From Nanobdellota archaeon (lineage in GTDB: Archaea; Nanobdellota; Nanobdellia; Pacearchaeales; JAHJTO01), in assembly GCA_042572295.1 (NCBI GenBank), contig JBHPFA010000002.1, positions 180-64,179 on the forward strand: a DNA stretch of 64,000 bases, written 5' to 3'. Shown piece by piece: positions 26,963 through 46,145 of this stretch. Under the pieces are notes generated by a model. That model saw only the letters and a program-made list of their open reading frames with translations, ran no database searches and was not told where the DNA came from. Positions within the stretch are counted from its first letter, which is position 1; the number at the start of each line of letters is the position of its first letter. Both the position numbers and the translations under genes were made by a program.

Positions 26963-26973
26963 AGGAAAAGATT

Positions 26974-27912: not shown

Positions 27913-27913
27913 T

Positions 27914-28456: not shown

Positions 28457-30516
28457 AAGCACTAATACTTGCTGGAGGTTTTGGAACAAGATTAAAAGAA
28501 ATTACTAAAGGTGTTCCTAAACCAATGGCACCTATTGCAGGCAAACCCTTTTTACACCACCAAATAAGACTACTTAGAGAACAAGGAATTACAGATATAG
28601 TCCTTGCAGTGCATTATATGAGTGATAAGATAAAAGCATATTTTGGAAATGGAAAGAGACATGGCGTAGATATTTCTTATGCTGAAGAAGAAATGCCTTT
28701 GGGAACAGGTGGAGCAATAAGAAATGCAAAAAGATATCTCGGAAATAATAAATTTGCCGTATTTAATGGAGATACTTATACTGGGATGAGTATTAAGAAC
28801 TTTAATAAATTTCATGAAGAAGTTGGTGAAGACTTTAGCATGGCAGTAACTTCTCATAATGAACCAGAACATCATGAGATTATTGAAATAAAGGACAATA
28901 TGGTAAAAACTCTTCATGAAAGAGGAAAATGTCCAAAAAATCTTGAATGCTTAATAAATAGTGGGGCCTATTTATTGGAACCAAACATATTTGATTATAT
29001 CGAAGAAGGAAGAAATATTTCTCTTGAAAAGGAAGTTTTTCCGAGAATTGTTGGTGAAGGTAAATTAGCTGCTTATAAACATACAGAGTATTTTATAGAT
29101 ATTGGTAGACCTGAAACTTATAAACAATTCAAAAAAGAAATGGTTAATGCCATGTTAATGAAAAAAACAGATTCTATAAGGAGTGCTATGAAAAGAATGG
29201 ACCGAAATGAAGAAGGTCTTGTATTTATTGTAGATGAAAACGAAAAACTAACAGGGATTGTAACCCCACATTTTATCAATAGTGCATTTATTAATGGGAA
29301 AACAAACCTCGAAGATAAACTTGAAAAAGTAATGCTTACTGAAGGCTTGGCTTTTGGAAATGAAAGTGATTCTCCTGAAAAAATAGCAGAAATAATGCTT
29401 CCCCGTACAAATAGGCTTCCGATACTTAATTCTCAAGGAAAAATTACAGACATAGTTTACAGACAAGAGGTATTGGGACCAAAAGAGTCTCCGACCTATA
29501 GGGCAATTTCTCCTTTAAGAATAAGTTTTTCAGGAGGGGGGACAGATAAAGAAGATTATTTCACAAGATTTGGTACAGGGGTTGTGATAAATGCGACAAT
29601 TGACAAATATTGTCATGCGACCACCAAACTAAGGCATGATAAATTGATAAGCATAAATCCTGGTGGCGAAGATGAAGAATTGCTAGACTTGAAAAAGGAA
29701 AAATTTGAATATAACGGCAGGTGGGATCTTGCAAAAGCAGTCGTTAAAGTGATGAATCCTGATTTTGGATTCGATCTTCATGCTTATAACGATGTTCCTC
29801 CAGGAAGAGGACTTGGTTCTTCTGGAAGTTTTGCAGTAATGCTTACTGAATTGATTGGACAAATGCGTGGAGAATACTTAACAAATGATCAAATAGCTAA
29901 ATTAGCAAGAAAAGCTGAAATAGAAGAATTAAAAATAAAAGGCGGATGGCAAGACCAATATGCTGCAAAAGTGGGGGGCTTTAATTTAATGGAATTTTCA
30001 CAAAATAAAATAACTCCTTCTTCACTTGCACTTTCTCCAGAAGTTGTAAGAGAGTTAGAAGAGAGCCTATTGCTCTGTTATATTGGAAAAACACATAATT
30101 CTGGAGAAATACATGCTGAACAAGAAAAGAATTTTCAAAAAGATGAAAAAAGAATACGTGGGGGTCTTGAAAAGTTAACTTCTATCGCAACGATTATAAG
30201 AGATTCTCTAGTTTCTAAAAATCCTTCAAAAGTTGGAGAGATTGGGAATTATTTACATGAAGCTTGGTTAATTAAAAAGGGGTTAAGTGGATCTATTTCT
30301 AATAATGAAATAGATGATTTGTATAACCTTGGATTAAAAAATGGGGCTACTGGGGGGAAACTTCTTGGAGCAGGAAACGGGGGATATCTTCTCTTCTTTT
30401 CACCTCCTGAGAGAAAAAGTTTGTTGGAAAAAGAACTATATAAAAATAAAAGAGAAATAATGAAGTTCCATTTTGAGCGACAACCTGCAGGAACACAGGT
30501 TTGGCCAGTCTATTAA
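28453..30516 (+). CDS. Tri-domain fusion: sugar-1-P nucleotidyltransferase (HddC-like) + CBS pair + GHMP sugar kinase (HddA-like)
   Basis: The N-terminal [34 protein letters not shown] is the NTP-transferase domain. The middle [31 protein letters not shown]...[15 protein letters not shown] is a CBS pair. The C-terminal [12 protein letters not shown] and [15 protein letters not shown] are the GHMP kinase domain. It overlaps gmhB by 4 nt. Confidence 0.8.
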   Translation: [687 protein letters not shown]

Positions 30517-30553
30517 TATGATAACCTTCAGTAAAACTTAAATAAGTTAGATA

Positions 30554-31435
30554 TTGGAGATATGTATGAAGACTCCAATAAGGGTTTCTATAATCATCCC
30601 CACATATAATGAAGAAAAAGATATCTCAGAAGCAATAGCCTCCTTATTAAAACAGTCATTTAAAGATTTTGAAATAATAATAGTGGATGATGGTTCAATT
30701 GATAACACTCTCCAAATAATCAAAAATTTCTCTAAAAAAGATAAAAGAGTGAAAATAATTCCTGGAAAGCATAAAGGTCCTGGATTTTCTAGAAACCTTG
30801 GAGCTAAAAAGGCTAAAGGAAAAATTTTAGTATTTGTCGACGCAGATATGACCTTTGACAAAGATTATATTAAGAATTTAATTGCTCCTTTAACAAAAAA
30901 TAAACAGATAATTGGATCAACTCACGAATTGGAGATGGTTAAAAATACTAAAAACATTTGGAGCAGGTGTTGGGGGAAAATAAGATTTGATAAAGAAAGT
31001 GCTAAAGACGCTAGAATTTTTAGGGCAATAAACAAAAATAAATTTTTTGATATGGGTGGTTTTGATTCAAAATATGGGTATGCAGATGATCAAACCTTCT
31101 GGTTTAAGTATGGTAAAAGGCCATTTGCTGCAAAAAAAACAAGCTGTTACCATAAAAATCCCGAAACTTTAAAATCAGTTTACAAGCAAAGTAAATGGAT
31201 TGGCGCTTCTATAGAAAATTTTTGGTTAAAAGTCCCAATAGTCAAATATTTAGTTCCCCTAGTTATGCTTATTTTTTTCCCTTTAGCAGTCCCAATACTT
31301 GGATTGAAAAAAAGTATCAAAAATAAGGATTTTAAATTATTTTTCCCTTGGATGTTGATATTCATGACAGTTAGATACTTTGGTACAATCTCAGGAATCT
31401 TTAGAGAAATATATCTTGGGAGGAATATTAGATAA
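30554..31435 (+). CDS. GT2 glycosyltransferase with C-terminal TM segments
   Basis: VSIIIPTYNEEKDISEAIASLLKQ, IIVDDGSIDNT and FVDADMTFD. ATG 30565 is an alternative start. Confidence 0.8.
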   Translation: MEICMKTPIRVSIIIPTYNEEKDISEAIASLLKQSFKDFEIIIVDDGSIDNTLQIIKNFSKKDKRVKIIPGKHKGPGFSRNLGAKKAKGKILVFVDADMTFDKDYIKNLIAPLTKNKQIIGSTHELEMVKNTKNIWSRCWGKIRFDKESAKDARIFRAINKNKFFDMGGFDSKYGYADDQTFWFKYGKRPFAAKKTSCYHKNPETLKSVYKQSKWIGASIENFWLKVPIVKYLVPLVMLIFFPLAVPILGLKKSIKNKDFKLFFPWMLIFMTVRYFGTISGIFREIYLGRNIR

Positions 31436-31436
31436 G

Positions 31437-32003
31437 ATGGATGCTCGATTAAAAAGTGACAAATTAAGATTTAAACTCATAAATAGATTCTTAATCGGGA
31501 AAGATATTTTGGATATTGGATCTTGCGAAGGATTCTTACACAGATTACTTGTTGAGAATAATCCTAATAAAAAGATTTTTACATTAGATTCTAATCAGAA
31601 GGCAGATTATTCATTTAGTTTAGATAAACCCAAAAAAATAAAAAAGAAATTTGACACAATTGTTGCCGGGGAAGTTATAGAACACCTCGAATCACCCATT
31701 AAATTTGTTAGATATTGTAAAAGCCTACTTAAGAATAAGGGGAGACTTATAATAACTACTCCTAACGCCATAGGCCTGCAATATTTAAGGAATCCTGGTT
31801 GGTGTGTCCATTACAAAGGTTATCGGGGCCACACCCAAGCATTTACAAAAGATATGATAAAAAGGATTTGTGAAGATGAAAAGTTAAAGGTTATCCAGGA
31901 AAAATATATTAATGCTTTTTGGATGGGCAATCCCTTGAAATACTTGTCTTGGATAATAAAAAGATTAAGACCAGATATAATGGTTGTGGCCGAAAAAATT
32001 TAA
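31437..32003 (+). CDS. Class I SAM-dependent methyltransferase
   Basis: Contains ILDIGSCEGFLHRLL and VAGEVIEHLESP. I prefer ATG 31437, 1 nt after the upstream stop, over the ORF-track TTG 31380, which would overlap the GT2 gene by 56 nt. Confidence 0.7.
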   Translation: MDARLKSDKLRFKLINRFLIGKDILDIGSCEGFLHRLLVENNPNKKIFTLDSNQKADYSFSLDKPKKIKKKFDTIVAGEVIEHLESPIKFVRYCKSLLKNKGRLIITTPNAIGLQYLRNPGWCVHYKGYRGHTQAFTKDMIKRICEDEKLKVIQEKYINAFWMGNPLKYLSWIIKRLRPDIMVVAEKI

Positions 32004-32022: not shown

Positions 32023-32802
32023 TTATAGTTTTTTCTTCGTACTTATGTTCCCTATTTTTCTATATATTAAGACCAAGTTTTTAAGAAATACTATAGGAGT
32101 TATTATTGACATCAATATGAGATACGTCCCAGGGATGTTGAAGACTATTGTTATAAATAAGAATGAAAAGGGGTTATTGGGCCTTAATAACTCCATAGTA
32201 TAATCCTTTACTGTTTTTATTAATCCTTTTTTCTGACCATAGGCTGTGGCAACCATATAGCTCTCTCTCATCTTGTATATTAAATCAAGTCTTTTTTCAT
32301 TTGCAAAAGTTTCGTATACTTTAAGTTTGTTGAGATTATCTAATAACAAAAAGATTGAGGTAGAGATACCTAAATACAAATAAGCAATATTTCCATTAGT
32401 GTTATAAATCCCCCACCCTAATGCCAGTACTAATAACCCTCTGTGGATATAGTGGAAAAGCCTATCAAGATATGTTCCACCAATAGTAGTTATTTTTTTT
32501 GCTTTTGCGATTTCTCCATCAACATAATCTAGTAATACTGCAAAATGATACAAAATGGCTCCAAAAACCATATAAGAATATCCTCCGAGACCTATAAAAA
32601 AACATGCAACAACTCCTAAAAATCCCCAAGTAAAACTTATTTGATTTGGTGTTAAAGGAGTAAATCTTGCAAAAATGTATGCGACATAACTTGAAAAAGG
32701 TCCTAGAATTCGAATGTTTATGGGGTGTTTACCCCAATCATCTGATGCATCTTTTATTTGCTGTAAAGTAATTTTCTTATCCATTCTTAAACAAGCCCTC
32801 AC
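32023..32802 (-). CDS. CDP-alcohol phosphotransferase-family membrane protein
   Basis: Polytopic. LDYVDGEIAKAKKITTIGGTYLDRLFH matches D-x2-DG-x2-A(R/K)-x8-G-x3-D-x3-(D), with His in place of the last Asp. It overlaps the upstream rSAM gene by 4 nt. Confidence 0.7.
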   Translation of the reverse strand: MRACLRMDKKITLQQIKDASDDWGKHPINIRILGPFSSYVAYIFARFTPLTPNQISFTWGFLGVVACFFIGLGGYSYMVFGAILYHFAVLLDYVDGEIAKAKKITTIGGTYLDRLFHYIHRGLLVLALGWGIYNTNGNIAYLYLGISTSIFLLLDNLNKLKVYETFANEKRLDLIYKMRESYMVATAYGQKKGLIKTVKDYTMELLRPNNPFSFLFITIVFNIPGTYLILMSIITPIVFLKNLVLIYRKIGNISTKKKL

Positions 32803-34274
32803 ATATATTTTTTCTTATAAATTTTACTTAACTCCAAAAATGCTTCATTTCCTTTTTGATCAAACTTTTCTGCGAGTTCAATCTTTGGCCACATTTCTTT
32901 CTGGAATCTTACGTAAAGAGGGAATGTTCTTTGAAGTCCTTTAACTTGCTCCCTGTTTAACTGGGGCATGTCCAATCCTGCATCAGAACGATAATCTCCA
33001 GCATAACCTTCTCTTGGAATGTATCCCTTTTTGACCGAATGATCCCATAAAGGGGTTCCCCTATATGCACAAAAAATATTTGTTATAAGATTATCTGCCT
33101 GACAATCCCTATTAAGTTGAATTGTATCAAAAACAAGGTCTCTTGTTTCTTCTGGGAAGCCAATTATGTTATTTGCACAAATTCTTATTCCAGATTGTCT
33201 TGCTATTTCAAATGCATTGATTATCTTTTTGTTATCCACATAACGATTAAGCATTTTCCTCCTAAACTCATCATTTCCATGTTCTAAACCAATACTAATT
33301 CCTTCACAACCTATTTCTTTTAGTTTACTTACTCTATCAAGCTTAACTGTTTCTGGCCTTGTTTCAATCCAAAAAGGCAATCCAATTTCCTTGTATCCTT
33401 TAATAAAATCATCAAATCTTTTAGGACCCATTTGTAGAAAATTTTCTGCAACAAGGTAAAGATATTCTAAACCAAACTCTTCTTTCTTAGTTTTTAATTC
33501 ACTCATGAAATTCTCTATAGATCTTTGTCTAGGGTATCTTCCTATTCCTTTGTAATGTGCTTGTAATTTATCGTTACAACAGAATGCACAATGGTAAGTA
33601 CAACCCCTATTCAATTCTACAGGGCCACTTATGTTAATCTTTCCACCCATTGGCTTAAAGAACCTTTTCTTTTCATAAATACTCCAATCTTGGTCTGGTA
33701 ATGAATCAAGATCTGCAAGTGGAGCAAGAGGATTTTTTATTATGCCTCCATCTTTCTTTAACCAAATATTATCTGTACGAGAATAATCTTCTTTTGATCT
33801 TATTTTATTTGCAAGATCGACTATTGCCTTTTCACCTTCTCCAACACAAATCATATCGATAGAATCTTCTTTTAGAATATCTTCGAGACCCATTGTTGCA
33901 TGTATTCCCCCGACAATTTTGGGAGTTTTTAAGTCTTTGATGCTATTTAATAAATTTAAAGCAATATGGTAGGTAGGCTCTACGACTGAAACTCCTATTA
34001 AATCTGGTTTAAATGAATCTATAGATTTGTGAAAATCTTTTACAAGGTTTTCTTTCTTTTCAGTTATTCCAAGCTCCTCAAGATTGGTTTCTTTTACTTG
34101 AAGAGATTCGACTCTTGCTTCATCCCCTGTTTTTTCCCTTGTTCTATAAAAAGTTGTGTCAAACAAAGCTGTTTCATGTCCCGCTTTTTTTAAACAAGAA
34201 GACAAAAGAGAAGGTCCGATAGGTATTAAATTGTCCATAAAACTATTTGCATAAACTAGAAGTACTTTTGACAT
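32799..34274 (-). CDS. B12-binding-domain radical SAM enzyme (class B)
   Basis: An N-terminal B12-type domain (IGVSVVEPTY...IVGGIHATM) is followed by LNRGCTYHCAFCCN. Confidence 0.8.
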   Translation of the reverse strand: MSKVLLVYANSFMDNLIPIGPSLLSSCLKKAGHETALFDTTFYRTREKTGDEARVESLQVKETNLEELGITEKKENLVKDFHKSIDSFKPDLIGVSVVEPTYHIALNLLNSIKDLKTPKIVGGIHATMGLEDILKEDSIDMICVGEGEKAIVDLANKIRSKEDYSRTDNIWLKKDGGIIKNPLAPLADLDSLPDQDWSIYEKKRFFKPMGGKINISGPVELNRGCTYHCAFCCNDKLQAHYKGIGRYPRQRSIENFMSELKTKKEEFGLEYLYLVAENFLQMGPKRFDDFIKGYKEIGLPFWIETRPETVKLDRVSKLKEIGCEGISIGLEHGNDEFRRKMLNRYVDNKKIINAFEIARQSGIRICANNIIGFPEETRDLVFDTIQLNRDCQADNLITNIFCAYRGTPLWDHSVKKGYIPREGYAGDYRSDAGLDMPQLNREQVKGLQRTFPLYVRFQKEMWPKIELAEKFDQKGNEAFLELSKIYKKKYM

Positions 34275-34275
34275 T

Positions 34276-35766
34276 TTAAGTTACTCTTCCCAAAATTAAA
34301 TCTGCCTTATCTCCATGTCTTTTCAGAAATTGTTTGAACTTTGATTCCCATGCTCCAGGATTTTTCTTTTTTATATATTCATTGAAAGCTGTTGTTTTTT
34401 CTATAACTAATTTCTCAAGTTCTCCTGGAGAGATTATATAATCAGCAGAAGTTGGAGGAATTTTTATTGCAACATGTTTTAGGTCCCCTTTTACTCCAGA
34501 ATCAAGATATCCTTTTTCTTTACAGATTTTATGTAATCTGGAACCAATCATTGGATGAGCAAGGAAAAGAGAGGCGCTATCAAATCCTACTTCATAAGGA
34601 TAATTGAAAGTATCTTCCATCTCTTCTCTTTTTTCTCCAGGAAATCCAACGATGAACAACCCATGAACTTGTACACCCTTATCATGACATATATCAATCA
34701 AACTTTTTACTTTTTCTTTTGATGGGACCCTTTTGTTAATTATTTCTTTTCTAACTCTTTCATTTCCAGACTCCACAGCAAAAGTAAGTTGATAGGCTCC
34801 AGATTGGGCCATTAAATCTATCATCTCTTCATCCAATGTTTGAATCATAAGCCCATTTGGAGTACACCAAGAAAGATTATAGGGTTTTAATCTTTTAAAT
34901 AATTCTTTTGCCCTAGGTTTGTGTGCTGTTAAGTTATCATCTGCAAACTGTATTTCTTTAACTCCATAATTTTTTGTTAAGTCATCAATTTCTTCAATTA
35001 TGTTATCAACAGATCTTGTCCTAAAATGATGCCCCCAATAATTTACAGTAGAACAAAAAACACAATCAAATGGACAGCCCCTAGAAGTCATAACTTGTTC
35101 AACACGGTCTTCTTTTGAGAATGGGCCAAAGGGAACTCCTATTTGGATATAACGTTCCATATTTATCATATCTCTTGCAGGTTGGGGTAAGGCATTTAAG
35201 TCTTTTATCCTATTAATTAGTGGATTTACTATGGCTTCTCCATTTTTTTTATAGGCTACTCCATCAAAAGATAAGGAAGTCTCTCCTTTATTGAGAGCCT
35301 CAAGAAGGTTTAGTGCCCTATATTCTCCTTCCCCTATCACAACATAATCTACTGATTTGTTCATTATTGATTCTTTTGGAGCAAGTGAAGGGTGTATTCC
35401 TCCCAAAACAACTGAAATATCTGGATTTATTTTTTTAACTAAATTACAATGGTCTATAGCATTTTCTTGATGAGCTGAAAACATCGAAGTTATTCCCACT
35501 ATATCTGGATTATAATCCTTTATTCTGTTGGAAATTTCCTCTTTTGATAATCCATAGGTAAGATAATCTCCATTTATACTTGTTTTATGGTATCCCTCAC
35601 AAGGGGAGTCTAAAATTTTAACATCATAGCCCTTATCTCTTAATAATGCACCCATATATAAGAAACCTAGGGGGGTTGTAAGCCTTCTTGCACTATCTTT
35701 GGGCATAGTATTCGAAGGATTCAAAAATAAGACTTTTCTATATTTACCCTTTGCCATCTTAAACAC
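34276..35766 (-). CDS. B12-binding-domain radical SAM enzyme (class B)
   Basis: An N-terminal B12-type domain (VGITSMFSAH...VLGGIHPSL) is followed by TSRGCPFDCVFCS. Only 1 nt separates it from the downstream rSAM gene. Confidence 0.8.
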   Translation of the reverse strand: MFKMAKGKYRKVLFLNPSNTMPKDSARRLTTPLGFLYMGALLRDKGYDVKILDSPCEGYHKTSINGDYLTYGLSKEEISNRIKDYNPDIVGITSMFSAHQENAIDHCNLVKKINPDISVVLGGIHPSLAPKESIMNKSVDYVVIGEGEYRALNLLEALNKGETSLSFDGVAYKKNGEAIVNPLINRIKDLNALPQPARDMINMERYIQIGVPFGPFSKEDRVEQVMTSRGCPFDCVFCSTVNYWGHHFRTRSVDNIIEEIDDLTKNYGVKEIQFADDNLTAHKPRAKELFKRLKPYNLSWCTPNGLMIQTLDEEMIDLMAQSGAYQLTFAVESGNERVRKEIINKRVPSKEKVKSLIDICHDKGVQVHGLFIVGFPGEKREEMEDTFNYPYEVGFDSASLFLAHPMIGSRLHKICKEKGYLDSGVKGDLKHVAIKIPPTSADYIISPGELEKLVIEKTTAFNEYIKKKNPGAWESKFKQFLKRHGDKADLILGRVT

Positions 35767-35807
35767 TATAGAGGGTGCTTTTTAAACTTTACTTTAGAAT
35801 GACGACA

Positions 35808-36518
35808 CTATTGATTTTCTATCGATTTTAATGCTCTTGGGATGTCTTCTTTTTTGTCAATTTCAGACCATGCCAAGTTTAAATCTACAAAACCATACCA
35901 GGGAGAAATTTTGCTTGCATTATATGCACAATCCTCATAATATTCATCAAGATTTCCCTGTTCGAGGTTTTCTTTATGAAGATTAAACATAATATCCATA
36001 AATTCTTTTGAGAACTTTGAAATTCCTGTAAACTCAAAGGGGTTTTTTCCAGGATTCTTTTTTCCTAAATAAGTTATTTTATTTGATGAATCTAAAAGCA
36101 CATAAACTTCATCATTACTCCCACAACATTTTGTAAGAACTACTTTTGATTTATCATCTGAATTGATTAGCTTATTTATTATTTCCCCATCATAAACTAT
36201 GTCTCCATCAAGAACAAGACATTCCTTAGAATTTCTCAAAGCAGTATAAAGAGAATGCATACTCCCTGTTGTTTCATAAGATTTATTAAAGACATATGAA
36301 AGTTCTATGTCTCCCTTCCATTTTTCAAGATATTCTTTTATTATCTCTCCTTTGAATCCTAAAGCAATTGTTGCTTTTTTAACACCTGCTGCAGCAAGAG
36401 CTTCTAATGAATATTGAATAAGAGGTTTTCCTTTTATCTCTAAAAGGGGCTTCGGCTTTCCATTTAATATTTCTTTAAGCCTTGTCCCCATGCCTGCTGC
36501 TAAAATTATTGCTTCCAT
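35808..36518 (-). CDS. LicC/PntC-like nucleotidyl(cytidylyl)transferase
   Basis: MEAIILAAGMGTRLKEILNGKPKPLLEIKGKPLIQYSLE is the NTP-transferase G-loop. 236 aa. It starts 1 nt after the stop of the ppd-like gene. Confidence 0.75.
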   Translation of the reverse strand: MEAIILAAGMGTRLKEILNGKPKPLLEIKGKPLIQYSLEALAAAGVKKATIALGFKGEIIKEYLEKWKGDIELSYVFNKSYETTGSMHSLYTALRNSKECLVLDGDIVYDGEIINKLINSDDKSKVVLTKCCGSNDEVYVLLDSSNKITYLGKKNPGKNPFEFTGISKFSKEFMDIMFNLHKENLEQGNLDEYYEDCAYNASKISPWYGFVDLNLAWSEIDKKEDIPRALKSIENQ

Positions 36519-36519
36519 T

Positions 36520-37638
36520 TTAATCTCTTAAAGAACCCAAAAAAGATTCTTTGTTTTCTAAGGGTGTTTTTGTTGGCCTTCCAAGATCTTTTCTTGATTC
36601 AGAATTTACTTTTATTATTAGAAGAACTGGACCTTTCAAGTCATTGATTTTTTTCATTGATTCTTCTAATTCTTTTTTGGTTTCTATTTGTAATGCAAAA
36701 GCATAACCACTTGCTAAAGCTATACTTTTAAAATCAACATTATCTGAAATTGTTGGTTGTCCCCCTGTAGAACCGTGTGCCCCATTATCAAATATGAAAT
36801 GATAAAGATTATTTGGTTTTTGATAGCCTATTGTTGCCATTGATCCAAGCTGCATTAAGATTGCTCCATCGCCATCAAATGCAAAAATCTTCTTTTGTGG
36901 TTTTTGAAGAGCAACTGAATTGGCAAGAGAAGCTACACACCCCATGCTTCCGACCATGTAGAAGTCCTTTGGATCTTGATTTTTAGAAATACGGTATTCA
37001 AATAGCTCTCTTGAAGTTTTTCCAGTTGTAGATATTATTGCTTCCGAACCAGATGAAAAATCAATAATTGTTTTTATGGCTTCTTCCCTAGACATTTCAA
37101 AACTTCTTATTTTCTTAGTTTTAGTAGGATAATCATCAATAACTCCTTTTTTGATGATTAATGCCACTGGAGCTTGCTTTTTGAAGGCCTCTTCTTTCAT
37201 CTTAGCTATAACTTTTTCTGCTTCTTTAGGATTGTCTGGAAGAATTTCGTAAGGGACCTCTAAGCAGTCAAGAAGATTGAAAGTTATTCTTCCCATTTTT
37301 TTATGCTGTGGTTCATCTTTTTTCCCGGGCTCTCCCCTTAATCCTATCATTAAAAGCATTGGAATACTATAGACCTCTTTGTCACATAAAGAAGTAAGTG
37401 GATTTACACATTTTCCAAGGCCTGAATTCTGCATATATACTACACCTAATTTTCCTGTTGAGAGATTATATCCTGCACATATGGCTGTAGCCTCACATTC
37501 ATTTACTGCTACGATATTTGTTAAGTCTTTAGCTTCTGCTAAATAACTCATCCATCCCTTGAAAGTACTATCTGGAACTCCTGAAAAAAATGAAATTTCA
37601 TGTTTCTTAAATATCTCTGAAAGAGATGTAAAATCCAT
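36520..37638 (-). CDS. ppd: Phosphonopyruvate decarboxylase (ThDP-dependent)
   Basis: 372 aa, the short ThDP-enzyme size typical of Ppd. The ThDP motif is FDGDGAILMQLGSMATIG...IFDNGAHGSTGGQ. It sits next to PEP mutase and the AEP transaminase. Confidence 0.85.
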   Translation of the reverse strand: MDFTSLSEIFKKHEISFFSGVPDSTFKGWMSYLAEAKDLTNIVAVNECEATAICAGYNLSTGKLGVVYMQNSGLGKCVNPLTSLCDKEVYSIPMLLMIGLRGEPGKKDEPQHKKMGRITFNLLDCLEVPYEILPDNPKEAEKVIAKMKEEAFKKQAPVALIIKKGVIDDYPTKTKKIRSFEMSREEAIKTIIDFSSGSEAIISTTGKTSRELFEYRISKNQDPKDFYMVGSMGCVASLANSVALQKPQKKIFAFDGDGAILMQLGSMATIGYQKPNNLYHFIFDNGAHGSTGGQPTISDNVDFKSIALASGYAFALQIETKKELEESMKKINDLKGPVLLIIKVNSESRKDLGRPTKTPLENKESFLGSLRD

Positions 37639-37659
37639 ATAATCTCCATAAGCGATATG

Positions 37660-37667
37660 TTTATAAG
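37660..37667. promoter_or_regulatory. Single central TATA-like element (TTTATAAG) in the 50-nt ppd / AEP-transaminase divergent gap
   Basis: The box centre (37663.5) is 25.5 nt from the ppd start codon (CAT at 37636-37638) and 25.5 nt from ATG 37689. No other A/T box fits between the two genes. Confidence 0.4.
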
Positions 37668-37676
37668 TTTTTTTAT

Positions 37677-38789
37677 GTGTCTCGATTTATGGAAAGAAAG
37701 GTATTAATGACTCCTGGACCTGCTACGACTTCTCGAGGAGTGAAAGAAGCACAAGTAGTTCCAGATATTTGCCCTAGAGAGGAAGAATTTGGAAGAGTTA
37801 TGGAAGATATTAGGGAAAAATTGATTAGAATAGCTGGAGGAGATGAGAATTATGAGTGTGTTTTGATGGGGGGCCCTGGTACTGCTGGAATGGAAGCTAC
37901 GCTTAGTTCAGTTGTAAATGGCAAGGTTCTAATTATCAACAACGGAGCCTATGGTGAAAGGTTTGTCAAAATAGCTAAATGCTATAATATGGATTTTAAA
38001 GAAGTAGTCTTTGGTTGGGATGAAGAAATTAATCCTGAAAAAGTTGAGGCAGAGATTGATGAAGGAGTCAAATACATTGTTATGATCCATCATGAAACAA
38101 CTACTGGAATTCTTAATCCTGTTGAAAAGATTTCAGAATTAGCCAAAAAACATAATTGTGTTTTTATTCTTGATGCAATCTCTAGTTTTGCAGGTCTTCC
38201 TATAGATGTAAAAAAACTCAATGTTGATTTTCTTATATCTTCAAGTAATAAATGTATTCAAGGCATGCCAGGAATATGTTTTATTATATGCAAAAAAGAA
38301 GAACTTGTAAAATTAAAAGAGGTTCCAAAAAGAGGTTTTTACTTAAACATGTATTTGGAACATGAATATGTTAAATTAAAGAAACAAACAAGATTTACCC
38401 CTCCCGTTCAAACTGCCTATGCTTTAAAAAAGGCAATTGAAGAATTTTTTGAAGAGGGAGCTGAAAAAAGATATGGGAGATATCAAGAAAATAATAAGAT
38501 CCTTTTAGAAGGTATGGCAAAATTGGGTTTCAAAAAAATATTCCCTGACCATTTTGAGGAAAGTGGTTTGTTAACTACCTTTTTTGACCCAGATAATAAA
38601 AATTATTCATTTGATAAAATGCATGATGGTTTATACAAGAGAGGATTTACTATTTATCCTGGAAAAATAAAAGAAAAAACATTCAGACTTTCTAATTTAG
38701 GTGATTTGAATATAGAAGATATTAAAAAGTTTATTGAAGAACTTAAAAAAGTAATGAAAGAAATGGATTTAGAATTAATTAGCGCTTAA
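37677..38789 (+). CDS. phnW: 2-aminoethylphosphonate:pyruvate aminotransferase-like class V aminotransferase
   Basis: LMTPGPATTS, and SSSNKCIQGMPG carrying the PLP lysine. About 365 aa. The ORF track starts at GTG 37677; ATG 37689 (MERKVLMTPGP) is more likely. Confidence 0.8.
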   Translation: MSRFMERKVLMTPGPATTSRGVKEAQVVPDICPREEEFGRVMEDIREKLIRIAGGDENYECVLMGGPGTAGMEATLSSVVNGKVLIINNGAYGERFVKIAKCYNMDFKEVVFGWDEEINPEKVEAEIDEGVKYIVMIHHETTTGILNPVEKISELAKKHNCVFILDAISSFAGLPIDVKKLNVDFLISSSNKCIQGMPGICFIICKKEELVKLKEVPKRGFYLNMYLEHEYVKLKKQTRFTPPVQTAYALKKAIEEFFEEGAEKRYGRYQENNKILLEGMAKLGFKKIFPDHFEESGLLTTFFDPDNKNYSFDKMHDGLYKRGFTIYPGKIKEKTFRLSNLGDLNIEDIKKFIEELKKVMKEMDLELISA

Positions 38790-40496
38790 TATGTCTTTAA
38801 CAGAATAAAGATCTTTTTCATTGTGTATTTCTAACCATCCACCATGTGTTTCATGTATTGCGATTTTAAATCCCCGATTTATCATTTCTTGAATCATATC
38901 TGTATCAACAGCCTCTTTAAAATTAATTGAATCATGGAACCTTCCTTGAGAATTTTTTTTACAGTCTTCATAGACTTTGATAAGATTTTCTGCCCCCACT
39001 TTTGAAAACTTTGCAAGACCCAAATATTCGTGAGTCATTTCTTCAGTTGAAATATTTCTCCCAATCTTAAGGGCTTCATCATTGTGTGTCCTAAACCTTT
39101 GATATGCTAATTTATTGTTGTTCTTTGTAATAACACAATCTAATTTTTTATCGACTTCGTGCTCGTGGTAAAGATAAGAGTTATCTACAACAATAACAAT
39201 ATCTTCTTTTCTCCCAAGAATTTCTTTTACAAGTATTTCATCAAGAAGGATATCTGAATTAACATAAATAAACCCATTTTTCATCTTATCTTTCGCTTCC
39301 ATTATACTATGGAGCATTCCTTCTGAACTATAATTTTCTTTTTGAAAATAATTAATTCCTTTGAGGTTGAATTTTTCTTTTTGATAACCAATTATTACAT
39401 TAATATCATCCAACCCCTGTGCTTTAAACGCTGAGATTTGATGTTCCAATAAAGTTTTACCATTAATTTGAATTAGTGCTTTAGGAATATCTCCAGTAGA
39501 CTCAAAAGGTTGATGGGCCCCTGCTGCAGGAATTATCACTGTTGGTTTTGGAGATATTGATTTATCTTTTTCCTTAATATCAAGAAACCCTACTTTTTCA
39601 AAAACTTCTTTGGTTGTAACAATATAAGGATCTGCTTCAAGAGATCTTTTATTTTCCAAGATGATCCTTCCAACATTCTGCATTGCCTTATAAGAAGATC
39701 TCAACATATGGTTCGCATATATGACTACATTAAATCCTTTTTCTTTAAATTCCTCTTCATAAATAGAATTATAAGTTGTAGGAACACAAACAAGAGGTTT
39801 TTTAAGATTTAGTTCATGGCATAACTTTTTGTAGCCTTCTGCAAACTCAAAAATACCTTTAGGAGATATTGATTTTGAATGGATCATAATCCCATCCACT
39901 CCTGCTAGAAGGTATTTTCTTGCCCTGTATAAAGCATCTTCTACAGATTTCCCTGCAATAAGGCTTTCTATCCTTGCTATAATCATAAAATCTTTAGATC
40001 TTTGTATTTTTTTCCCAGTCATTATTTTGTTAGCAAATTTGTCTGGATCTTCTTGATCTTGGTTTGTTCCACCTTCAAGACTATTCCTTTTTGGAAATAT
40101 TTTATCTTCGATTATAATTGCGGAGACTCCTGTTTTTTCTAATTTAGGAATTAAATACTCAAAATGATGGATATCTCCCCCCGTATCCCCATCTACAATC
40201 ATAGGTTTATTAGTTACTTCAAGTATTTCTGAGATAGTTCTTAATCTTGAATCAAAACTGATTATTTCTATATCTGGATGCCCTTTAGAAGCGGAATCTG
40301 TTAGGCTGCTTTCCCAGAAAAAGTCAAATTCTTCAGATTTATCACATTTATCTTGAGTACAACATTTTAAATCGTTTACAATAAGGCCACTTAGAGCGTT
40401 ATGGACTTCCATACCCTTTATAAGTTTGTTAGATTTTAACAATTCTGATAATTTTCGTCTTCTCTCTTCAGGCGTTATTAGATGTCTTAAAGTCAT
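38775..40496 (-). CDS. pepM: Fusion protein: phosphoenolpyruvate mutase (N-terminal) + nucleotidyltransferase domain (C-terminal)
   Basis: The N-terminal ICL/PEP-mutase barrel carries the discriminating EDKxxxxxNS motif as AIIIEDKIFPKRNSLEG, plus MIVDGDTGGD. The C-terminal ~260 aa (TVIIPAAGAHQPFESTGDIPKALIQINGKTLLEHQI) form an NTP-transferase fold. Confidence 0.9.
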   Translation of the reverse strand: MTLRHLITPEERRRKLSELLKSNKLIKGMEVHNALSGLIVNDLKCCTQDKCDKSEEFDFFWESSLTDSASKGHPDIEIISFDSRLRTISEILEVTNKPMIVDGDTGGDIHHFEYLIPKLEKTGVSAIIIEDKIFPKRNSLEGGTNQDQEDPDKFANKIMTGKKIQRSKDFMIIARIESLIAGKSVEDALYRARKYLLAGVDGIMIHSKSISPKGIFEFAEGYKKLCHELNLKKPLVCVPTTYNSIYEEEFKEKGFNVVIYANHMLRSSYKAMQNVGRIILENKRSLEADPYIVTTKEVFEKVGFLDIKEKDKSISPKPTVIIPAAGAHQPFESTGDIPKALIQINGKTLLEHQISAFKAQGLDDINVIIGYQKEKFNLKGINYFQKENYSSEGMLHSIMEAKDKMKNGFIYVNSDILLDEILVKEILGRKEDIVIVVDNSYLYHEHEVDKKLDCVITKNNNKLAYQRFRTHNDEALKIGRNISTEEMTHEYLGLAKFSKVGAENLIKVYEDCKKNSQGRFHDSINFKEAVDTDMIQEMINRGFKIAIHETHGGWLEIHNEKDLYSVKDILSAN

Positions 40497-40530: not shown

Positions 40531-42111
40531 CTATACCTTGGCCATACTTTGTCTTTTTTTTGCCAATTTACTATTTATTGCATCAAGAATCATAAAGTCA
40601 TTCTTATCCAATCCCTTAAACAAAATGACTAATAATCCATAAGAAATTAAAAATAAAATGAAAAGTAAAATTAAAGAAAATAGATTAATTGTGAATAGAG
40701 ATCTTAGATAAACTAAAAATGCTGAGGCAATTATGCCTGCTAGAAAAATATTGATCATCTTTCTTCTGACAAAAATGTGTTTTAAATAATACTTTGATTG
40801 GGCGAGGAAAAGAAGGTTTAGGAATATTATGGAGATTAATGTTGCTAAAGCTGCACCATTTATTCCTAAAGAATTTTCTATGAACAGAACATAGGGCATA
40901 GGGACCAATATCGCATTAAGGATAACATTCATTATGAAGGCAAGAGTAATGTTAAACAATACCAGTTTGGATTTTCCAATTATATAGATTAGCTGGGTGG
41001 GGACTATAAAAACAGCCGAGATAAAAGCCCCTATTGCAAGAATTCTCAAGGCATTTGCTGCAGCAAGATACGCTGGACCAAATATTATATTGATTATTGC
41101 TCCAGGAAATAATATAATCAGTGAAAATGCAGTTATATTAATTAAAAATATCCACTTTGTAACTTGTTTACTTGTCTCAATTATCACCTTTGTTCTTTTC
41201 TTGGAATATTCCCTGCTTATTAAGGGGAAGAAAAGTTGCATGAACAATTCAGGAGCTATGGCTAATAATAAAGCTATTGGAACTGCTGCCTGATATATTC
41301 CTACTTCAACTACTGATTTATAGAAGCCTATAGCAAAGGTATCTACCCAATAGAGTAATATGAGTATCACTCCTGAAAACAAAAGTGGAAAAGAATAACT
41401 GAAAAAGAGTTTTCTTGTTTTTACTTTTTCTTTTTTATTCAAATCACTTTTAATAAAGAGCTCAGGTATTTTACGTTTAGAGACGAAATAAGACACCATT
41501 AAAACAACAATCATTCCAAATAAATAAGAAAGAATTGTAGAGCCCCCCTTAACACCCATAAAAATAAGTAATACAATAATAATGAATTTTGAAAGAGGAT
41601 TTATAATATTTGCTATAAATGAATGGATGGATATTTTTTCATAAGCCCTTAGTGCCCCTATAAATGGAGAGGTAAGCATTGTTGCAGGTATTATGAAACT
41701 TGCGACTTTAAAATAAAATATAAGTTGAGAGTTGTTGAAAACATTCAACGCAAGGGGTTCTGATAGAAAAAATAGTAATATCCCTGAAAGTATGCTTGAA
41801 AAGGTTAGAATTATCAAAGAAAGATTGAAGATATATGTAACCTTGTTAGACTTCCCTTTTGCACGATAAATCGGAATAAATCTTGCGAGACCCTCCGAAA
41901 GACCCAATGCTGCAACTGCTATGAACCATCCACTAATCATTAAAGCTATGGAAAATAAACCATAAACCTCTGGACCAAAATACCTTGCAATTATAACTCT
42001 GTATAAGTAACCTATGATTTTTGACAATACAAGACTTAGGAATACAATTCCAGAGGTTTTAACTAAAAGTTTTAAATTAAGATGTAGTCCCTCTTTTTGT
42101 TTACTGGCCAT
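40531..42111 (-). CDS. MOP-superfamily polysaccharide flippase (Wzx/RfbX-like)
   Basis: 526 aa with about 14 hydrophobic segments. The N-terminal RVIIARYFGPEVYGLFSIALMI is typical of polysaccharide biosynthesis (Polysacc_synt) proteins. Confidence 0.7.
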   Translation of the reverse strand: MASKQKEGLHLNLKLLVKTSGIVFLSLVLSKIIGYLYRVIIARYFGPEVYGLFSIALMISGWFIAVAALGLSEGLARFIPIYRAKGKSNKVTYIFNLSLIILTFSSILSGILLFFLSEPLALNVFNNSQLIFYFKVASFIIPATMLTSPFIGALRAYEKISIHSFIANIINPLSKFIIIVLLIFMGVKGGSTILSYLFGMIVVLMVSYFVSKRKIPELFIKSDLNKKEKVKTRKLFFSYSFPLLFSGVILILLYWVDTFAIGFYKSVVEVGIYQAAVPIALLLAIAPELFMQLFFPLISREYSKKRTKVIIETSKQVTKWIFLINITAFSLIILFPGAIINIIFGPAYLAAANALRILAIGAFISAVFIVPTQLIYIIGKSKLVLFNITLAFIMNVILNAILVPMPYVLFIENSLGINGAALATLISIIFLNLLFLAQSKYYLKHIFVRRKMINIFLAGIIASAFLVYLRSLFTINLFSLILLFILFLISYGLLVILFKGLDKNDFMILDAINSKLAKKRQSMAKV

Positions 42112-42160
42112 TATTAATTAAGAAAAGATAAGTAGTTGATAAATGTTTTTATGACTCTTT

Positions 42161-42982
42161 TTATGGCTTGAGATTAAAATATTCCTTTAAGGCTTCTTTC
42201 CAAGACCTAAGACTTACTTTTTTAGAAGTTAATGCCTCACTATGTGAACGGAGGATGCCTTCTTGTTGGGAAAGTTTATTTTTTATTATCTTGGATTTAG
42301 AATTTATTCCTTTAATAGAGATTATTTCATTAAGTATGTCTTCTGGAGTCGCAATCCCTCTATTTACTACATGAAAGATGCCCTTAAATCCATTTTGTAT
42401 AAGTTCTTTCATTTTATCAATAAAATCTGGCAAGTAGGTTGGAGATCCTGTTTGATCTGTCACTACTTTTACTTCTTCCCCTTTTTCTAAAGAATTAATC
42501 ATTCTTTTAATGAAATCGATCTTCTTGCTATTATTTGTTCCGAAAATCCACCCAGTCCGGATTATTAAGTAATTAGGAGTTATAATTGGAAGAGACTTTT
42601 CTGCAAGATACTTCGTTTGGCCATAAATATTTTGGGGTTGAGGAGTATCTTCTTCATTAAAAGATTTATTTACAGGCCCATTAAAGATCGCTCCAGTAGA
42701 TAATAGGATTATAGGGATATTTCTTTTTGCGGCCTCTTTTGCAAGATTAATGACTCCATTAACATTTACTTCATGTGCTTGAGAGGGATTTTTTTCACAT
42801 GAACGGATATCTTTAGAAGATAAACAAAGAATCCCGGAGGGATTTATCTCATCACAGACTTTTTTAATATTCTTGGAATTTGTCACGTCTAATTCTCTAT
42901 GTGATTTTTTTACACCAAAATCTAATTGGCTCCCTATAACTCCTTCACTGCCAGTTATTAGAATACGTGAAAGATCAACCAT
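42161..42982 (-). CDS. RmlD-like NDP-4-keto-sugar reductase (SDR)
   Basis: ILITGSEGVIGSQL, YGQTKYLAE (YxxxK) and a size of 273 aa resemble dTDP-4-dehydrorhamnose reductase. Confidence 0.65.
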   Translation of the reverse strand: MVDLSRILITGSEGVIGSQLDFGVKKSHRELDVTNSKNIKKVCDEINPSGILCLSSKDIRSCEKNPSQAHEVNVNGVINLAKEAAKRNIPIILLSTGAIFNGPVNKSFNEEDTPQPQNIYGQTKYLAEKSLPIITPNYLIIRTGWIFGTNNSKKIDFIKRMINSLEKGEEVKVVTDQTGSPTYLPDFIDKMKELIQNGFKGIFHVVNRGIATPEDILNEIISIKGINSKSKIIKNKLSQQEGILRSHSEALTSKKVSLRSWKEALKEYFNLKP

Positions 42983-44210
42983 TTTTTACCAATTCTAATT
43001 TGGGAAATGGAACTATCATTGTAAACTCTGGAAAAATTTCCTTTAGTTTCGTTATAAAATGATCTTTGTAATTCCAAGAAAGAAGAAAGAAGATAGGATT
43101 TTGTTCTGTTTTAAGAGAATCAAATGACTTTACGGGAACATGAACTCCAGGAGTCAACTTTCCTTGTTTTAGAGGTGTGTCGTCAACTAAATAGGCTATA
43201 TCTTCGATACCTATACCACAATAATTCAATATAACTACTCCTCTTGCTGGACCTCCAAGCCCAATTAACTTACTGCCTTTTTGTTTTTCTTGATCTATAA
43301 GTTTTCTTAATTCTTTTTTAAATTCCTTCACTTTTGGATCCACAGAATCATATATTTGAGGATTCGTTAAACCCTGTTCAGATTCTTCTTTTAAGAGATT
43401 AGTAACTGCTTCAGACACGCTTGAAGATCCTTCCATTTTTTGTGCATAAATACGAAGAGATCCTCCTTGTGTGGGAATCTTTTCGACACCTACAACCTTT
43501 AGATTTGCTTGTTTAAATGTGGATATCAAAGAATGAAGCGAAAACGAATATACGTGTTCATGATATATAGTATCGAACTCTCCTTTGAGAATCGTTTCTA
43601 AAGCATATGCTCCTTCCATTACCAAAGTGCCATTGGGGCTTAGAATTCTTTCTACACCTTGGAGTAAGTCGACTACGTCTGGGGTGTGAGGTATAACATT
43701 TAATGCAACAATTAAATCATAGTGTCCTTTATCTTCTAAAATCTTTGCTGCAGTAGATGTATTGAAAAATTCTGGAATATAATCCACTCCCTTTTCTTTA
43801 TTCATATCAACTAAATTCTTTGCAGGATCTACCCCTAGGACTTGATCTGTTTTTTCCTTAAGAAAAGAGAGAAGAGTTCCATCATTAGAACCTATCTCTA
43901 AAATTTTCGTGTCTTGAGTTATACTGAAATGAGAATTTAGATTATCTGCTACTTCCCTTAAATGTTTTATATTTGATGCAGATCCTGAGGAAAGGTGTAA
44001 ATAATTTGAAAATAATTTTTCTGGAGGGACTATATCTTCTATTTGAACTAACAAACAAGATTCACAATATGCAAGATTTAAAGGATATGCTTTTTCATTT
44101 GGCAACTCTTCTTCACTTATGAAAGCATTTACCGGAGGGATATCTCCTAGCTCTAGAAATCTTTTTAGTTTTCCAGTTTTACAAACTTTACAATTTGGGA
44201 AGTTATCCAT
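42975..44210 (-). CDS. NDP-hexose C-methyltransferase (TylCIII-like; Zn-ribbon + SAM MTase + C-methyltransferase C-terminal domain)
   Basis: An N-terminal Zn ribbon (CKVCKTGKLKRFLELGDIPPVNAF...CESC) is followed by ILEIGSNDGTLLSF and a C-terminal Rossmann-like domain (LIGLGGPARGVVILNY). Confidence 0.75.
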   Translation of the reverse strand: MDNFPNCKVCKTGKLKRFLELGDIPPVNAFISEEELPNEKAYPLNLAYCESCLLVQIEDIVPPEKLFSNYLHLSSGSASNIKHLREVADNLNSHFSITQDTKILEIGSNDGTLLSFLKEKTDQVLGVDPAKNLVDMNKEKGVDYIPEFFNTSTAAKILEDKGHYDLIVALNVIPHTPDVVDLLQGVERILSPNGTLVMEGAYALETILKGEFDTIYHEHVYSFSLHSLISTFKQANLKVVGVEKIPTQGGSLRIYAQKMEGSSSVSEAVTNLLKEESEQGLTNPQIYDSVDPKVKEFKKELRKLIDQEKQKGSKLIGLGGPARGVVILNYCGIGIEDIAYLVDDTPLKQGKLTPGVHVPVKSFDSLKTEQNPIFFLLSWNYKDHFITKLKEIFPEFTMIVPFPKLELVKNG

Positions 44211-44211
44211 T

Positions 44212-46069: not shown

Positions 46070-46145
46070 CTTAGTTAAAGTTTTGTTCTATCATTTATAA
46101 ACTTTTGTGCACTATTTTATTGATATTTGGTAAGTATCTAAAAGT

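Follow-up and report, generated by a model that had tools for sequence, protein, structure and literature searches.

Seven genes at positions 32,023 to 40,496 of a 64,000-nucleotide stretch of contig JBHPFA010000002.1 from a Nanobdellota archaeon (this whole stretch is referred to as the window) appear to encode a Pnt-type phosphonyl-tailoring pathway of a DPANN archaeon, by which a modified 2-aminoethylphosphonate (AEP) head group would be put on a membrane-bound acceptor. We consider this reading about evenly balanced between right and wrong. The key to the proposed mechanism, judged from sequence comparison, is the kinship of rSAM-1, one of two cobalamin-dependent radical S-adenosylmethionine proteins (B12-rSAMs) encoded in the cluster, with Fom3 and SD_1168. 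An earlier note on this DNA, made from the sequence alone, had drawn attention to the cluster, and all seven open reading frames (ORFs) were found intact in the window ORF list with the same coordinates and strands. The genes, the spacer between two of them and the adjoining flippase-like gene are as follows.

40531-42111 (-): Wzx/Polysacc_synt flippase-like protein, directly upstream of pepM, possibly part of export (PF01943, 86.2 bits)
38775-40496 (-): phosphoenolpyruvate (PEP) mutase, PepM (residues ~16-300), with a C-terminal PF12804 nucleotidyltransferase (NTase)-like domain (residues ~320-573, nt 38775-39539) (TIGR02320)
37677-38789 (+): 2-aminoethylphosphonate:pyruvate aminotransferase (AEPT), AepZ/PhnW type (TIGR03301); likely true start ATG 37689
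37639-37676 (no strand): divergent spacer of 38 nt between ppd and the transaminase gene (sequence only)
36520-37638 (-): phosphonopyruvate decarboxylase, Ppd, a thiamine diphosphate (ThDP) enzyme, gene 1 of a five-gene operon (TIGR03297)
35808-36518 (-): stand-alone PntC-like cytidylyltransferase, predicted synthase of the cytidine monophosphate conjugate of AEP (CMP-AEP) (best PDB match 6pd1)
34276-35766 (-): rSAM-1, B12-rSAM of the Fom3/SD_1168 subfamily, predicted C-methyltransferase on CMP-AEP (PF02310 + PF04055)
32799-34274 (-): rSAM-2, second B12-rSAM, of an unnamed family, for which a second methylation is a guess (PF02310 + PF04055)
32023-32802 (-): divergent membrane protein of the cytidine diphosphate (CDP)-alcohol phosphotransferase (CDP-OH) family, predicted transferase for the phosphonyl head group of the CMP conjugate (PF01066; likely start 32784)

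The AEP core and the two nucleotidyltransferases

The pepM product scored 338.6 bits against the TIGR02320 PEP_mutase equivalog model, whose cut-off is 319.55, and fell far under the cut-offs of the models for phosphonopyruvate hydrolase (140.1 bits), methylisocitrate lyase (88.2 bits) and carboxyphosphoenolpyruvate (CPEP) mutase (35.2 bits). These hidden Markov model scores upheld the PEP mutase identity proposed in the earlier note, which had named a placement with methylisocitrate lyase or CPEP mutase clades as the outcome that would speak against it. The motif IIEDKIFPKRNS is present in the translation of 38775-40496(-), and in the alignment EDKIFPKRNS (residues 130-139) lay opposite EDKLFPKTNS of the Mytilus PepM (1m1b). 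Residues W44, S46, L48, D58, D85, D87, E114, K120, N122, S123, R159 and H190 were identical to those of 1m1b. From D58 onward these are what we take to be the catalytic and Mg residues of the Mytilus enzyme, so that both the EDKxxxxxNS motif and every listed residue agree with PepM.

The ppd product scored 442 bits against TIGR03297 (cut-off 312.5) over profile positions 2-357 of 360, contained PF02776 and PF02775, and carried the ThDP motifs GDGAILMQLGSMATIG...DNGAHGSTGGQ in 36520-37638(-), seen as GDGAILMQ...DNGAHGSTGGQ. The transaminase scored 395.8 bits against TIGR03301 PhnW-AepZ (cut-off 360.8) over profile positions 1-355 of 355; it is a class V protein (PF00266) with the motif SSSNKCIQGMPG in 37677-38789(+) and the pyridoxal phosphate-lysine context SSSNK. 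These scores bore out the short ThDP enzyme and the class V AEP transaminase that had been read from the sequence, and the canonical route from PEP through phosphonopyruvate and phosphonoacetaldehyde to AEP is represented by a complete, intact gene set. We regard the formation of AEP and of CMP-AEP by the cluster as highly probable.

The stand-alone NTase found its best PDB match in the T. denticola PntC (6pd1, E 3.3e-24) over residues 2-233, its full length. In PntC, Arg15, Lys25 and Lys153 are required for activity, and Glu104 and Glu196 touch the AEP amine (PMC6697681). Four of these five residues are kept in the window protein (Arg15, Lys25, Lys153 and Glu196 as R13, K23, K153 and E195), and the position of Glu104 is occupied by Asp, the LicC-like state. 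The protein is a good candidate for a PntC-type cytidylyltransferase with AEP as its predicted substrate, which agrees with the LicC/PntC-like assignment made earlier. It also weakly matched the HddC heptose-1-phosphate guanosyltransferase model.

The second NTase, the domain fused to PepM (PF12804, 36.7 bits), departs from the PntC signature. Its loop, IIPAAGAHQPFESTGDIPK, reads AAGAHQ rather than GxG(T/S)R; Arg15 is replaced by Gln, E104 by Asn and E196 by Asp, Lys25 is kept, and there is no equivalent of Lys153. A survey of homologues in one genome per GTDB species gave 79 loci, and tblastn was run on loci with all window proteins; loci are cited here by L numbers. The same degenerate loop was present in L001, L002, L006, L007, L051 and L056, rSAM-linked clusters among them, and the classical fused domains of L005, L053 and L084 keep 'AASRG...PK', that is, the Arg and the Lys of the PK pair. 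The PepM-fused domain lacks the signature Arg and is probably impaired or repurposed. Neither this loss nor the Fom3/SD_1168 kinship of rSAM-1 was remarked on in the earlier note.

Radical SAM proteins, membrane transferase and operon layout

Both radical SAM proteins contain PF02310 and PF04055 with a CxxxCxxC motif, as expected from the two B12-rSAM genes described in the earlier note. The motif cysteines are C231/C235/C238 in rSAM-1 (RGCPFDCVFC), the corresponding stretch of rSAM-2 is RGCTYHCAFC, and the cysteines were invariant in the alignments of the homologues of each protein. The nearest curated model to rSAM-1 was NF038361, 'Sden_1168 family ... P-methyltransferase', with 373.8 bits, which is under the equivalog cut-off of 575. 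Relatives of its clade scored 316-383 bits on this model, and true members scored 1006 (L062) and 587 bits (L055). Scores on the HpnJ, BchE and PhpK models were far lower, that on PhpK (TIGR04479) being 126.6 bits with a cut-off of 600. A PDB search with both rSAMs returned only distant B12-rSAM or rSAM folds (AprD4, 9ccb, OxsB, TsrM, TokK and CysS) and gave no functional clue.

rSAM-1 was 36% identical over 451 residues (E 4e-106) to a protein of L064 that we call a Fom3 orthologue from the fosfomycin architecture of its cluster rather than by a reference Fom3 sequence. This cluster comprises a B12-rSAM, an HTH+cupin protein (HppE-like), an AA_kinase (FomA-like), a CTP_transf_like-PepM fusion (Fom1), Ppd and an iron-containing alcohol dehydrogenase (Fe-ADH; FomC-like). 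The clusters of L064:9893-18302 (Streptomyces viridochromogenes NRRL 3413) and L059 are apparently of the fosfomycin type; we know of no record of these strains as fosfomycin producers.

More than 1300 homologues of rSAM-1 were found in uncultured archaea and bacteria. A quick neighbour-joining tree, which carries no support values, resolved four clades, A to D. Clade A comprises the window, L001-L007, L027 and L080-L082; a PntC-like NTase is present at 12 of its 12 loci, AEPT at 8 of 12 and PepM at 7 of 12. Clade B holds shorter DPANN proteins (L010, L013, L014, L015 and L017) and is sister to L053 and the Streptomyces loci L059/L064. Clade C is the true SD_1168 family (L062, L055), from which the window protein is separate, and clade D is large and without phosphonate context. 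By this sequence-based tree, the rSAM-1 clade is sister to the SD_1168 family. Genes of carbon-phosphorus (C-P) metabolism lay beside 13 of 19 rSAM-1 homologues with at least 42% identity and beside 8 of 65 below that value (Fisher p = 4e-6). Natural fusions of the NTase to rSAM-1 (P0021, P0033, P0072 and L081) and of rSAM-1 to AEPT (P0077) were also found; the L081 fusion repeats the window order, NTase then rSAM, and adjoins an AEPT gene. The physiological substrate of SD_1168 is unknown, and the protein is listed as a C- or P-methylase (PMC9204698); a 2026 review puts it with the Csp3 methylases (PMC12931638). Because its natural substrate is unknown, no function can be transferred from SD_1168 to rSAM-1.

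rSAM-2 is 24% identical to rSAM-1 and 22% identical to Fom3, and NCBIfam searches gave no curated family above cut-off for any of 13 members examined among its relatives. At least 14 of its top matches lie on contigs equal in size to those of rSAM-1 matches, and rSAM-2 adjoins rSAM-1, PntC or CDP-OH genes in L002, L006, L010, L014, L082, L085 and L086. L083:8923-12714 and L087:9110-12829 (Scalindua and another bacterium) share a conserved arrangement of three genes, for AP_endonuc_2, a B12-rSAM like rSAM-2 (47% identity) and LPG_synthase_TM; it is possibly lipid-related, and no phosphonate genes accompany it. In L084, AP_endonuc_2 and rSAM-2-like genes are paired at a distance of 3 kb from the AEP cluster of classical type. 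An AP_endonuc_2 gene of the window (25554-26282) was considered as the counterpart of this recurrent partner of rSAM-2-like genes (L083, L084, L086, L087) and was rejected, as tblastn detected no similarity.

The product of the last gene of the operon, called a CDP-alcohol phosphotransferase in the earlier note, scored 30.1 bits on PF01066, a weak match above the gathering score of 22. The family motif D1xxD2GxxAR...GxxxD3xxxD4 appears as D92xxD95GxxAK100...G109xxxD113xxxH117, with Lys100 in place of Arg and His117 (nt 32452-32454) in place of D4. D1, D2, G and D3 are invariant in the subfamily, and D4 is absent from most members. The rSAM-linked transferases of the window, L002, L003, L007, L013, L015, L080, L086 and L088 have His, Ser, Ala or Gly at this position, and the Asp is kept in L051, L084 (classical), L085 and the solved AF2299. 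The subfamily is small and divergent, with only 10 representative clusters at E <= 1e-30 among 1.8 billion, and its profile best matched AF2299 (4o6m, E 5.5e-22) and IPCT-DIPPS (4mnd, E 6e-11). The window NTase and transferase weakly match the two halves of IPCT-DIPPS. A CDP-OH transferase gene is the immediate neighbour of rSAM-1, rSAM-2 or the NTase gene in the window and in L002, L003, L082, L086 and L088. On balance, the last gene product probably transfers the phosphonyl group from the CMP conjugate. To judge from the family, the acceptor is more likely to be a lipid or a small alcohol; a glycan is possible, given the context of Wzx and glycosyltransferase (GT) genes and a LicD/CDP-OH pair in L080.

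The genes downstream of ppd form a tight minus-strand operon, as had been claimed. By ORF coordinates, the junctions measure 1 nt (ppd/NTase), 41 nt (NTase/rSAM-1) and 1 nt (rSAM-1/rSAM-2), with a 4-nt overlap between rSAM-2 and the CDP-OH gene. With the likelier starts (the NCBI start 35757 for rSAM-1 and Met7 at 32784 for the transferase), the NTase/rSAM-1 gap would be ~50 nt and the rSAM-2/CDP-OH gap ~14 nt. The transaminase gene is divergent from ppd and convergent with pepM, with whose 3' end it shares 15 nt. Since pepM closes a longer upstream minus-strand unit, 34 nt behind the Wzx-like flippase gene, it lies outside the ppd operon. The sole TATA-like element of the spacer, TTTATAA at 37660-37666, lies ~25 nt from the ppd ATG (37638) and ~25 nt from the transaminase ATG 37689. 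This spacing suggests a single bidirectional archaeal promoter in 37639-37676 that would give leaderless mRNAs, and suggests that the transaminase starts at the in-frame ATG 37689 and not at GTG 37677. A bacterial promoter and terminator scan gave fewer hits than shuffled sequences and, being geared to bacteria, was uninformative for an archaeon. No riboswitch was found in the window, and base composition gave no sign of recent transfer (GC 0.30-0.34 throughout).

Proposed pathway and alternative explanations

In the proposed pathway, PepM converts PEP to phosphonopyruvate, Ppd pulls the reaction onward to phosphonoacetaldehyde, and the transaminase yields AEP; these steps are evident from the sequence. 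The stand-alone PntC-like NTase would then form CMP-AEP, which is isosteric with CDP-ethanolamine, from cytidine triphosphate and AEP. rSAM-1 would recognise the CMP handle and C-methylate CMP-AEP, most simply at C2 to give CMP-2-aminopropylphosphonate, and rSAM-2 would add a second modification, either a further methylation or something else. Finally, the CDP-alcohol-family protein would use the CMP conjugate as its donor and release CMP as it passes the phosphonyl group on to an alcohol anchored in the membrane, either an archaeol-type lipid or a glycan linked to a lipid. The nucleotide would thus have two roles: the radical enzyme would recognise its substrate by it, and it would be the group that leaves in the transfer.

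The precedent for this scheme is Fom3, which methylates CMP-2-hydroxyethylphosphonate made by the Fom1 cytidylyltransferase (PMC6697681, PMC9204698). The natural NTase and AEPT fusions, the invariant NTase neighbour and the analogy to Fom3 are the reasons for assigning CMP-AEP to rSAM-1, and the C-methylation of the CMP conjugate by this protein, argued largely by analogy, could equally turn out either way. The flanking regions 18605-32003 and 40531-51042 (~30 ORFs) were scanned, and neither an Fe-ADH nor a cupin of the 2-hydroxyethylphosphonate (HEP)/MpnS route was found among them, no dedicated MpnS model having been used; the Fe-ADH of L013 as a tblastn query also had no match in the window. 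As the window has no Fe-ADH, HEP-CMP cannot be the substrate of rSAM-1. The hallmark of the methylphosphonate pathway, an Fe-ADH (PhpC) and an MpnS/HepD-type dioxygenase beside pepM/ppd, was likewise not seen in the scanned neighbourhood, in line with the earlier statement that an MpnS-type route is absent.

The product may be a natural head group not yet reported, namely a C-methylated AEP such as 2-aminopropylphosphonate, possibly twice methylated, which the Asp4-less transferase would place on a scavenged archaeal lipid or a lipid-linked glycan. We suggest this tentatively, at somewhat less than even likelihood. The AEP-derived decoration of a lipid or surface glycan that the earlier note proposed holds as far as the AEP route, the PntC-type and CDP-OH genes and the glycan-island setting are concerned; its acceptor is a matter of inference.

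Several points weigh against the tailoring pathway. Both the methylation and its position, like the part played by rSAM-2 and the nature of the acceptor, are things that we infer. rSAM-1 is under the SD_1168 cut-off (374 vs 575 bits) and only 36% identical to Fom3, so that its substrate or reaction could differ. Remoter rSAM-2 relatives (47% identity) occur without phosphonate genes. The fourth motif Asp is the proposed catalytic base in canonical CDP-alcohol phosphotransferases, and with D4 missing the chemistry or acceptor of the transferase may be unusual, or its activity lower. Two clade-A loci on long contigs, L082 (Theionarchaea) and L088 (Riflebacteria), carry NTase, rSAM-1 and CDP-OH genes with no PepM or Ppd within 10 kb, so the module does not always come with local C-P genes; it may accept other activated head groups there, or pepM may lie elsewhere in those genomes. 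DPANN archaea would need to acquire cobalamin. The open-access literature searched held no C-methylated AEP natural product, natural 2-aminopropylphosphonate included.

The alternative that survives best, which we nevertheless judge unlikely, is that unmodified AEP is transferred as in the Pnt/'CDP-OH' clusters and that the rSAMs act on a sugar, lipid or protein of the surrounding glycan island. The island does hold four B12-rSAMs, an rSAM-SPASM gene and several class-I methyltransferases, and many relatives of rSAM-1 (<=40% identity), like those of rSAM-2 at 47%, lack phosphonate context. However, natural fusions join rSAM-1 to PntC and to AEPT, its gene lies between those of the NTase and the transferase in a tight operon, its kin Fom3 and SD_1168 both belong to phosphonate clusters, and a PntC neighbour is found at all 12 clade-A loci.

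Less probable still is that the NTase, rSAM-1, rSAM-2 and CDP-OH genes form a general head-group cassette, whose natural substrate would be a CDP/CMP-activated amino-alcohol phosphate (e.g., phosphoethanolamine), with AEP as one input or not as an rSAM substrate. This is consistent with the modules of L082 and L088, with the LicC-like Asp at PntC Glu104 in the stand-alone NTase and with the isosterism of CMP-AEP and CDP-ethanolamine. Yet the window module is co-operonic with ppd and adjoins the AEPT and pepM genes, most clade-A loci carry C-P genes, and in the L082 and L088 genomes PepM could sit elsewhere.

We find it quite improbable that the cluster makes a soluble bioactive phosphonate resembling fosfomycin, with CMP as a transient handle and no surface head group. 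Cytidylylation is transient in fosfomycin biosynthesis (PMC6697681, citing Cho 2017), rSAM-1 is related to Fom3, and a DPANN Fom1-like protein is 64% identical to Streptomyces Fom1. Among the neighbours scanned, however, we found neither a FomD-type hydrolase nor an HppE-type epoxidase, a resistance kinase or an exporter, and the operon ends with a membrane transferase in a Wzx/GT glycan island. That rSAM-1 is a P-methyltransferase with a phosphinate (C-P-C) product can scarcely be right: P-methylation requires an H-phosphinate, and no H-phosphinate-forming genes were seen in the scanned neighbourhood (no phosphonoformate/CPEP-mutase route; the weak CPEP_Pphonmut similarity is PepM itself). 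The best curated match, NF038361, is indeed named a P-methyltransferase, and SD_1168 methylated a phosphinate surrogate in vitro, according to a review (PMC9204698), but the NF038361 and PhpK scores of rSAM-1 are both under cut-off (PhpK 126.6 vs 600), and reviews call SD_1168 a C- or P-methylase or group it with Csp3 methylases (PMC9204698, PMC12931638).

Known systems, related clusters and the glycan island

The earlier note did not recognise the gene combination as described. Most of it is in fact the commonest published phosphonate neighbourhood (PMC6697681, PMC8942020), namely Ppm-PntC, Ppd, AEPT, PntC and CDP-OH, and it is the rSAM pair for which the statement holds. The PF12804 NTase fusion is the commonest Ppm architecture, at 33% of Ppm, and clusters with both fused and stand-alone PntC have been shown (Rice et al. 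2019, PMC6697681). The 'Burkholderiales_CDP-OH' core, found in 36% of RefSeq ppm neighbourhoods, consists of seven genes for Ppm-PntC, Ppd, AEPT, a second PntC, an alpha-KG/Fe(II) oxygenase and two phospholipid genes (Li & Horsman 2022, PMC8942020). Like the window, the Pnt/'Burkholderiales_CDP-OH' clusters combine Ppm-PF12804, Ppd, AEPT, a second PntC and a CDP-OH transferase, and a surface or lipid AEP head group is predicted for them. These five features are shared; in the window, two B12-rSAMs stand in the place of the oxygenase, of which none was found among the scanned neighbours, so that the full set is not present. The window also differs in its DPANN host and glycan-island setting. 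Compared with L084, the classical CDP-OH-type example in our survey, the window transferase lacks D4 and the window fused NTase lacks the signature Arg, both of which the classical clusters keep.

The early fosfomycin pathway of Streptomyces (Fom1, Fom2, FomC, Fom3) resembles the window in pairing a cytidylyltransferase with a B12-rSAM for a C2 phosphonate, and a similar use of the CMP handle is proposed. It differs in that the window would form AEP via a transaminase and not HEP, has no Fe-ADH and has an NTase of PF12804 rather than PF01467; no HppE, FomA or FomD was found, and the CMP conjugate is predicted to be used by a membrane transferase instead of being hydrolysed. The SD_1168 family (NF038361) offers a further parallel, since its L062 member lies behind PepM-Ppd-AEPT and with a PF12804 NTase. 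In L062:4906-14587 (Streptomyces tamarix) the genes encode an AA_kinase, PepM, Ppd, AEPT, a true Sden_1168 rSAM (1006 bits), an FAD/NAD(P)-binding protein and a PF12804 NTase, and this AEP-derived cluster is a hint that SD_1168-type enzymes, too, could have CMP-AEP as their natural substrate. As in the window proposal, the NTase of IPCT-DIPPS makes a soluble CDP-alcohol that the membrane domain takes directly as donor. IPCT-DIPPS and AF2299 have all four motif Asp residues and handle inositol phosphates, whereas in the window His replaces D4, Lys replaces the Arg, and the NTase has a gene of its own.

In the open-access literature searched, nothing was found on B12-rSAMs in AEP/PntC clusters, on DPANN phosphonates or on Fom3 homologues in AEP pathways. 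Relative to that literature, only the B12-rSAM pair, the Asp4-less transferase lineage and the DPANN host for phosphonate synthesis are new. Cell-surface decoration is considered the role of most microbial phosphonate genes, the fate of the phosphonate after CMP-AEP is essentially unknown, and no 'CDP-OH' cluster product has been characterised. The locus and its relatives predict that a Fom3-like radical enzyme tailors a CMP-phosphonate before a membrane transferase uses it. If this were true, it would mean a new natural phosphonate, a substrate class (CMP-phosphonates) for the orphan SD_1168/Fom3 subfamily, of which SD_1168 has been studied biochemically, and a wider logic of which the transient cytidylylation of fosfomycin is a special case. 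It would also give host-dependent DPANN archaea, for which the literature searched records no C-P synthesis, a C-P chemistry of the envelope. Head groups with a C-P bond withstand phosphatases and phospholipases, a property that could be of importance to an episymbiont. Should the rSAMs have nothing to do with the phosphonate, what is left is an ordinary cluster for AEP decoration, found in an unusual host.

Relatives of the locus were found in at least eight DPANN metagenome-assembled genomes (MAGs) and in several bacterial phyla, with synteny conserved across domains: all seven genes are present in L002 (Woesearchaeota), and similar sets in L001, L005, L006, L007, L080, L085 and L086. Four DPANN loci of clade B from Woesearchaeota/Nanoarchaeota MAGs (L010, L013, L015 and L017; e.g., L013:8623-15024) share the conserved order CTP_transf_like, Fom3-like rSAM, CyTase-PepM (the Fom1 architecture), Ppd and Fe-ADH, and follow the fosfomycin logic more closely than does the window. 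Their Fom1-like CyTase-PepM, at 64% identity to Streptomyces Fom1, suggests inter-domain transfer. By gene content they encode the whole early fosfomycin route to CMP-2-hydroxypropylphosphonate; a CDP-OH transferase is added in three of the four, and a head group of 2-hydroxypropylphosphonate is predicted as the product. In L013, the sole clade-B locus scanned in full, neither an HppE-like nor a FomA-like gene was found. Since these loci pair early fosfomycin genes with CDP-OH, the logic of cytidylylation, radical methylation and transfer appears twice, on amino and on hydroxy phosphonates and with different NTase folds, and clade B is the strongest independent support for it.

Two further loci have unusual gene sets. 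L088 (= L004), at 1-15668, contains an NTase, three radical SAM genes, two aminotransferases (one AEPT-like, 52% identity), a transaldolase and a transketolase, together with an rSAM-1 homologue (55%), a CDP-OH transferase, a methyltransferase and another B12-rSAM, and may build a different activated head group. L085:2886-16614 contains PepM-NTase, AEPT, an NTase, three B12-rSAMs, CDP-OH, HD and LPG_synthase_TM genes and no Ppd; a CTP_transf_like-citrate-synthase fusion stands in its stead. With such a citrate-synthase fusion, the thermodynamic pull on phosphonopyruvate is of another kind, like that in FR-900098-type pathways.

The archaeal host named in the earlier note was confirmed by window proteins that passed the curated cut-offs for archaeal-type uS4, SecY and RNA polymerase subunit D; archaeal-type uS13 and uS9 were best matches slightly under their cut-offs. 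By these matches, the contig is archaeal; it comes from a Nanoarchaeota/DPANN MAG. The glycan-island setting was equally apparent, as the cluster is flanked by sugar-nucleotide enzymes, GT2, GT4, GT25, Wzx and PMT_2. Wzx-like genes also flank the related clusters of L008 (49% identity), L010, L013, L015, L017, L085 and L086. A weak STT3/AglB-like oligosaccharyltransferase match at 5858-8515 of the window (81.7 bits vs a cut-off of 450), ~24 kb from the cluster, makes N-glycans a possible destination of the phosphonate.

The four B12-rSAM genes of the island are those at 13688-15097(+) and 22297-23625(-), rSAM-1 and rSAM-2, to which an rSAM-SPASM gene at 19842-20885(+) is added. The gene at 22297-23625 was considered as part of the system and rejected, being ~31% identical to non-phosphonate clade D. 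Class-I methyltransferase genes lie at 20882-22285 and 31380-32003 and a sugar C-methyltransferase gene at 42975-44210, which makes the island unusually rich in methylation for a small-genome archaeon that presumably imports cobalamin. The region 27914-30516 encodes a HAD phosphatase and, after it, a 687-aa protein in which sugar-1-phosphate NTase, CBS and GHMP-kinase domains are fused, a pair that resembles a compact sugar activation module, possibly for heptose.

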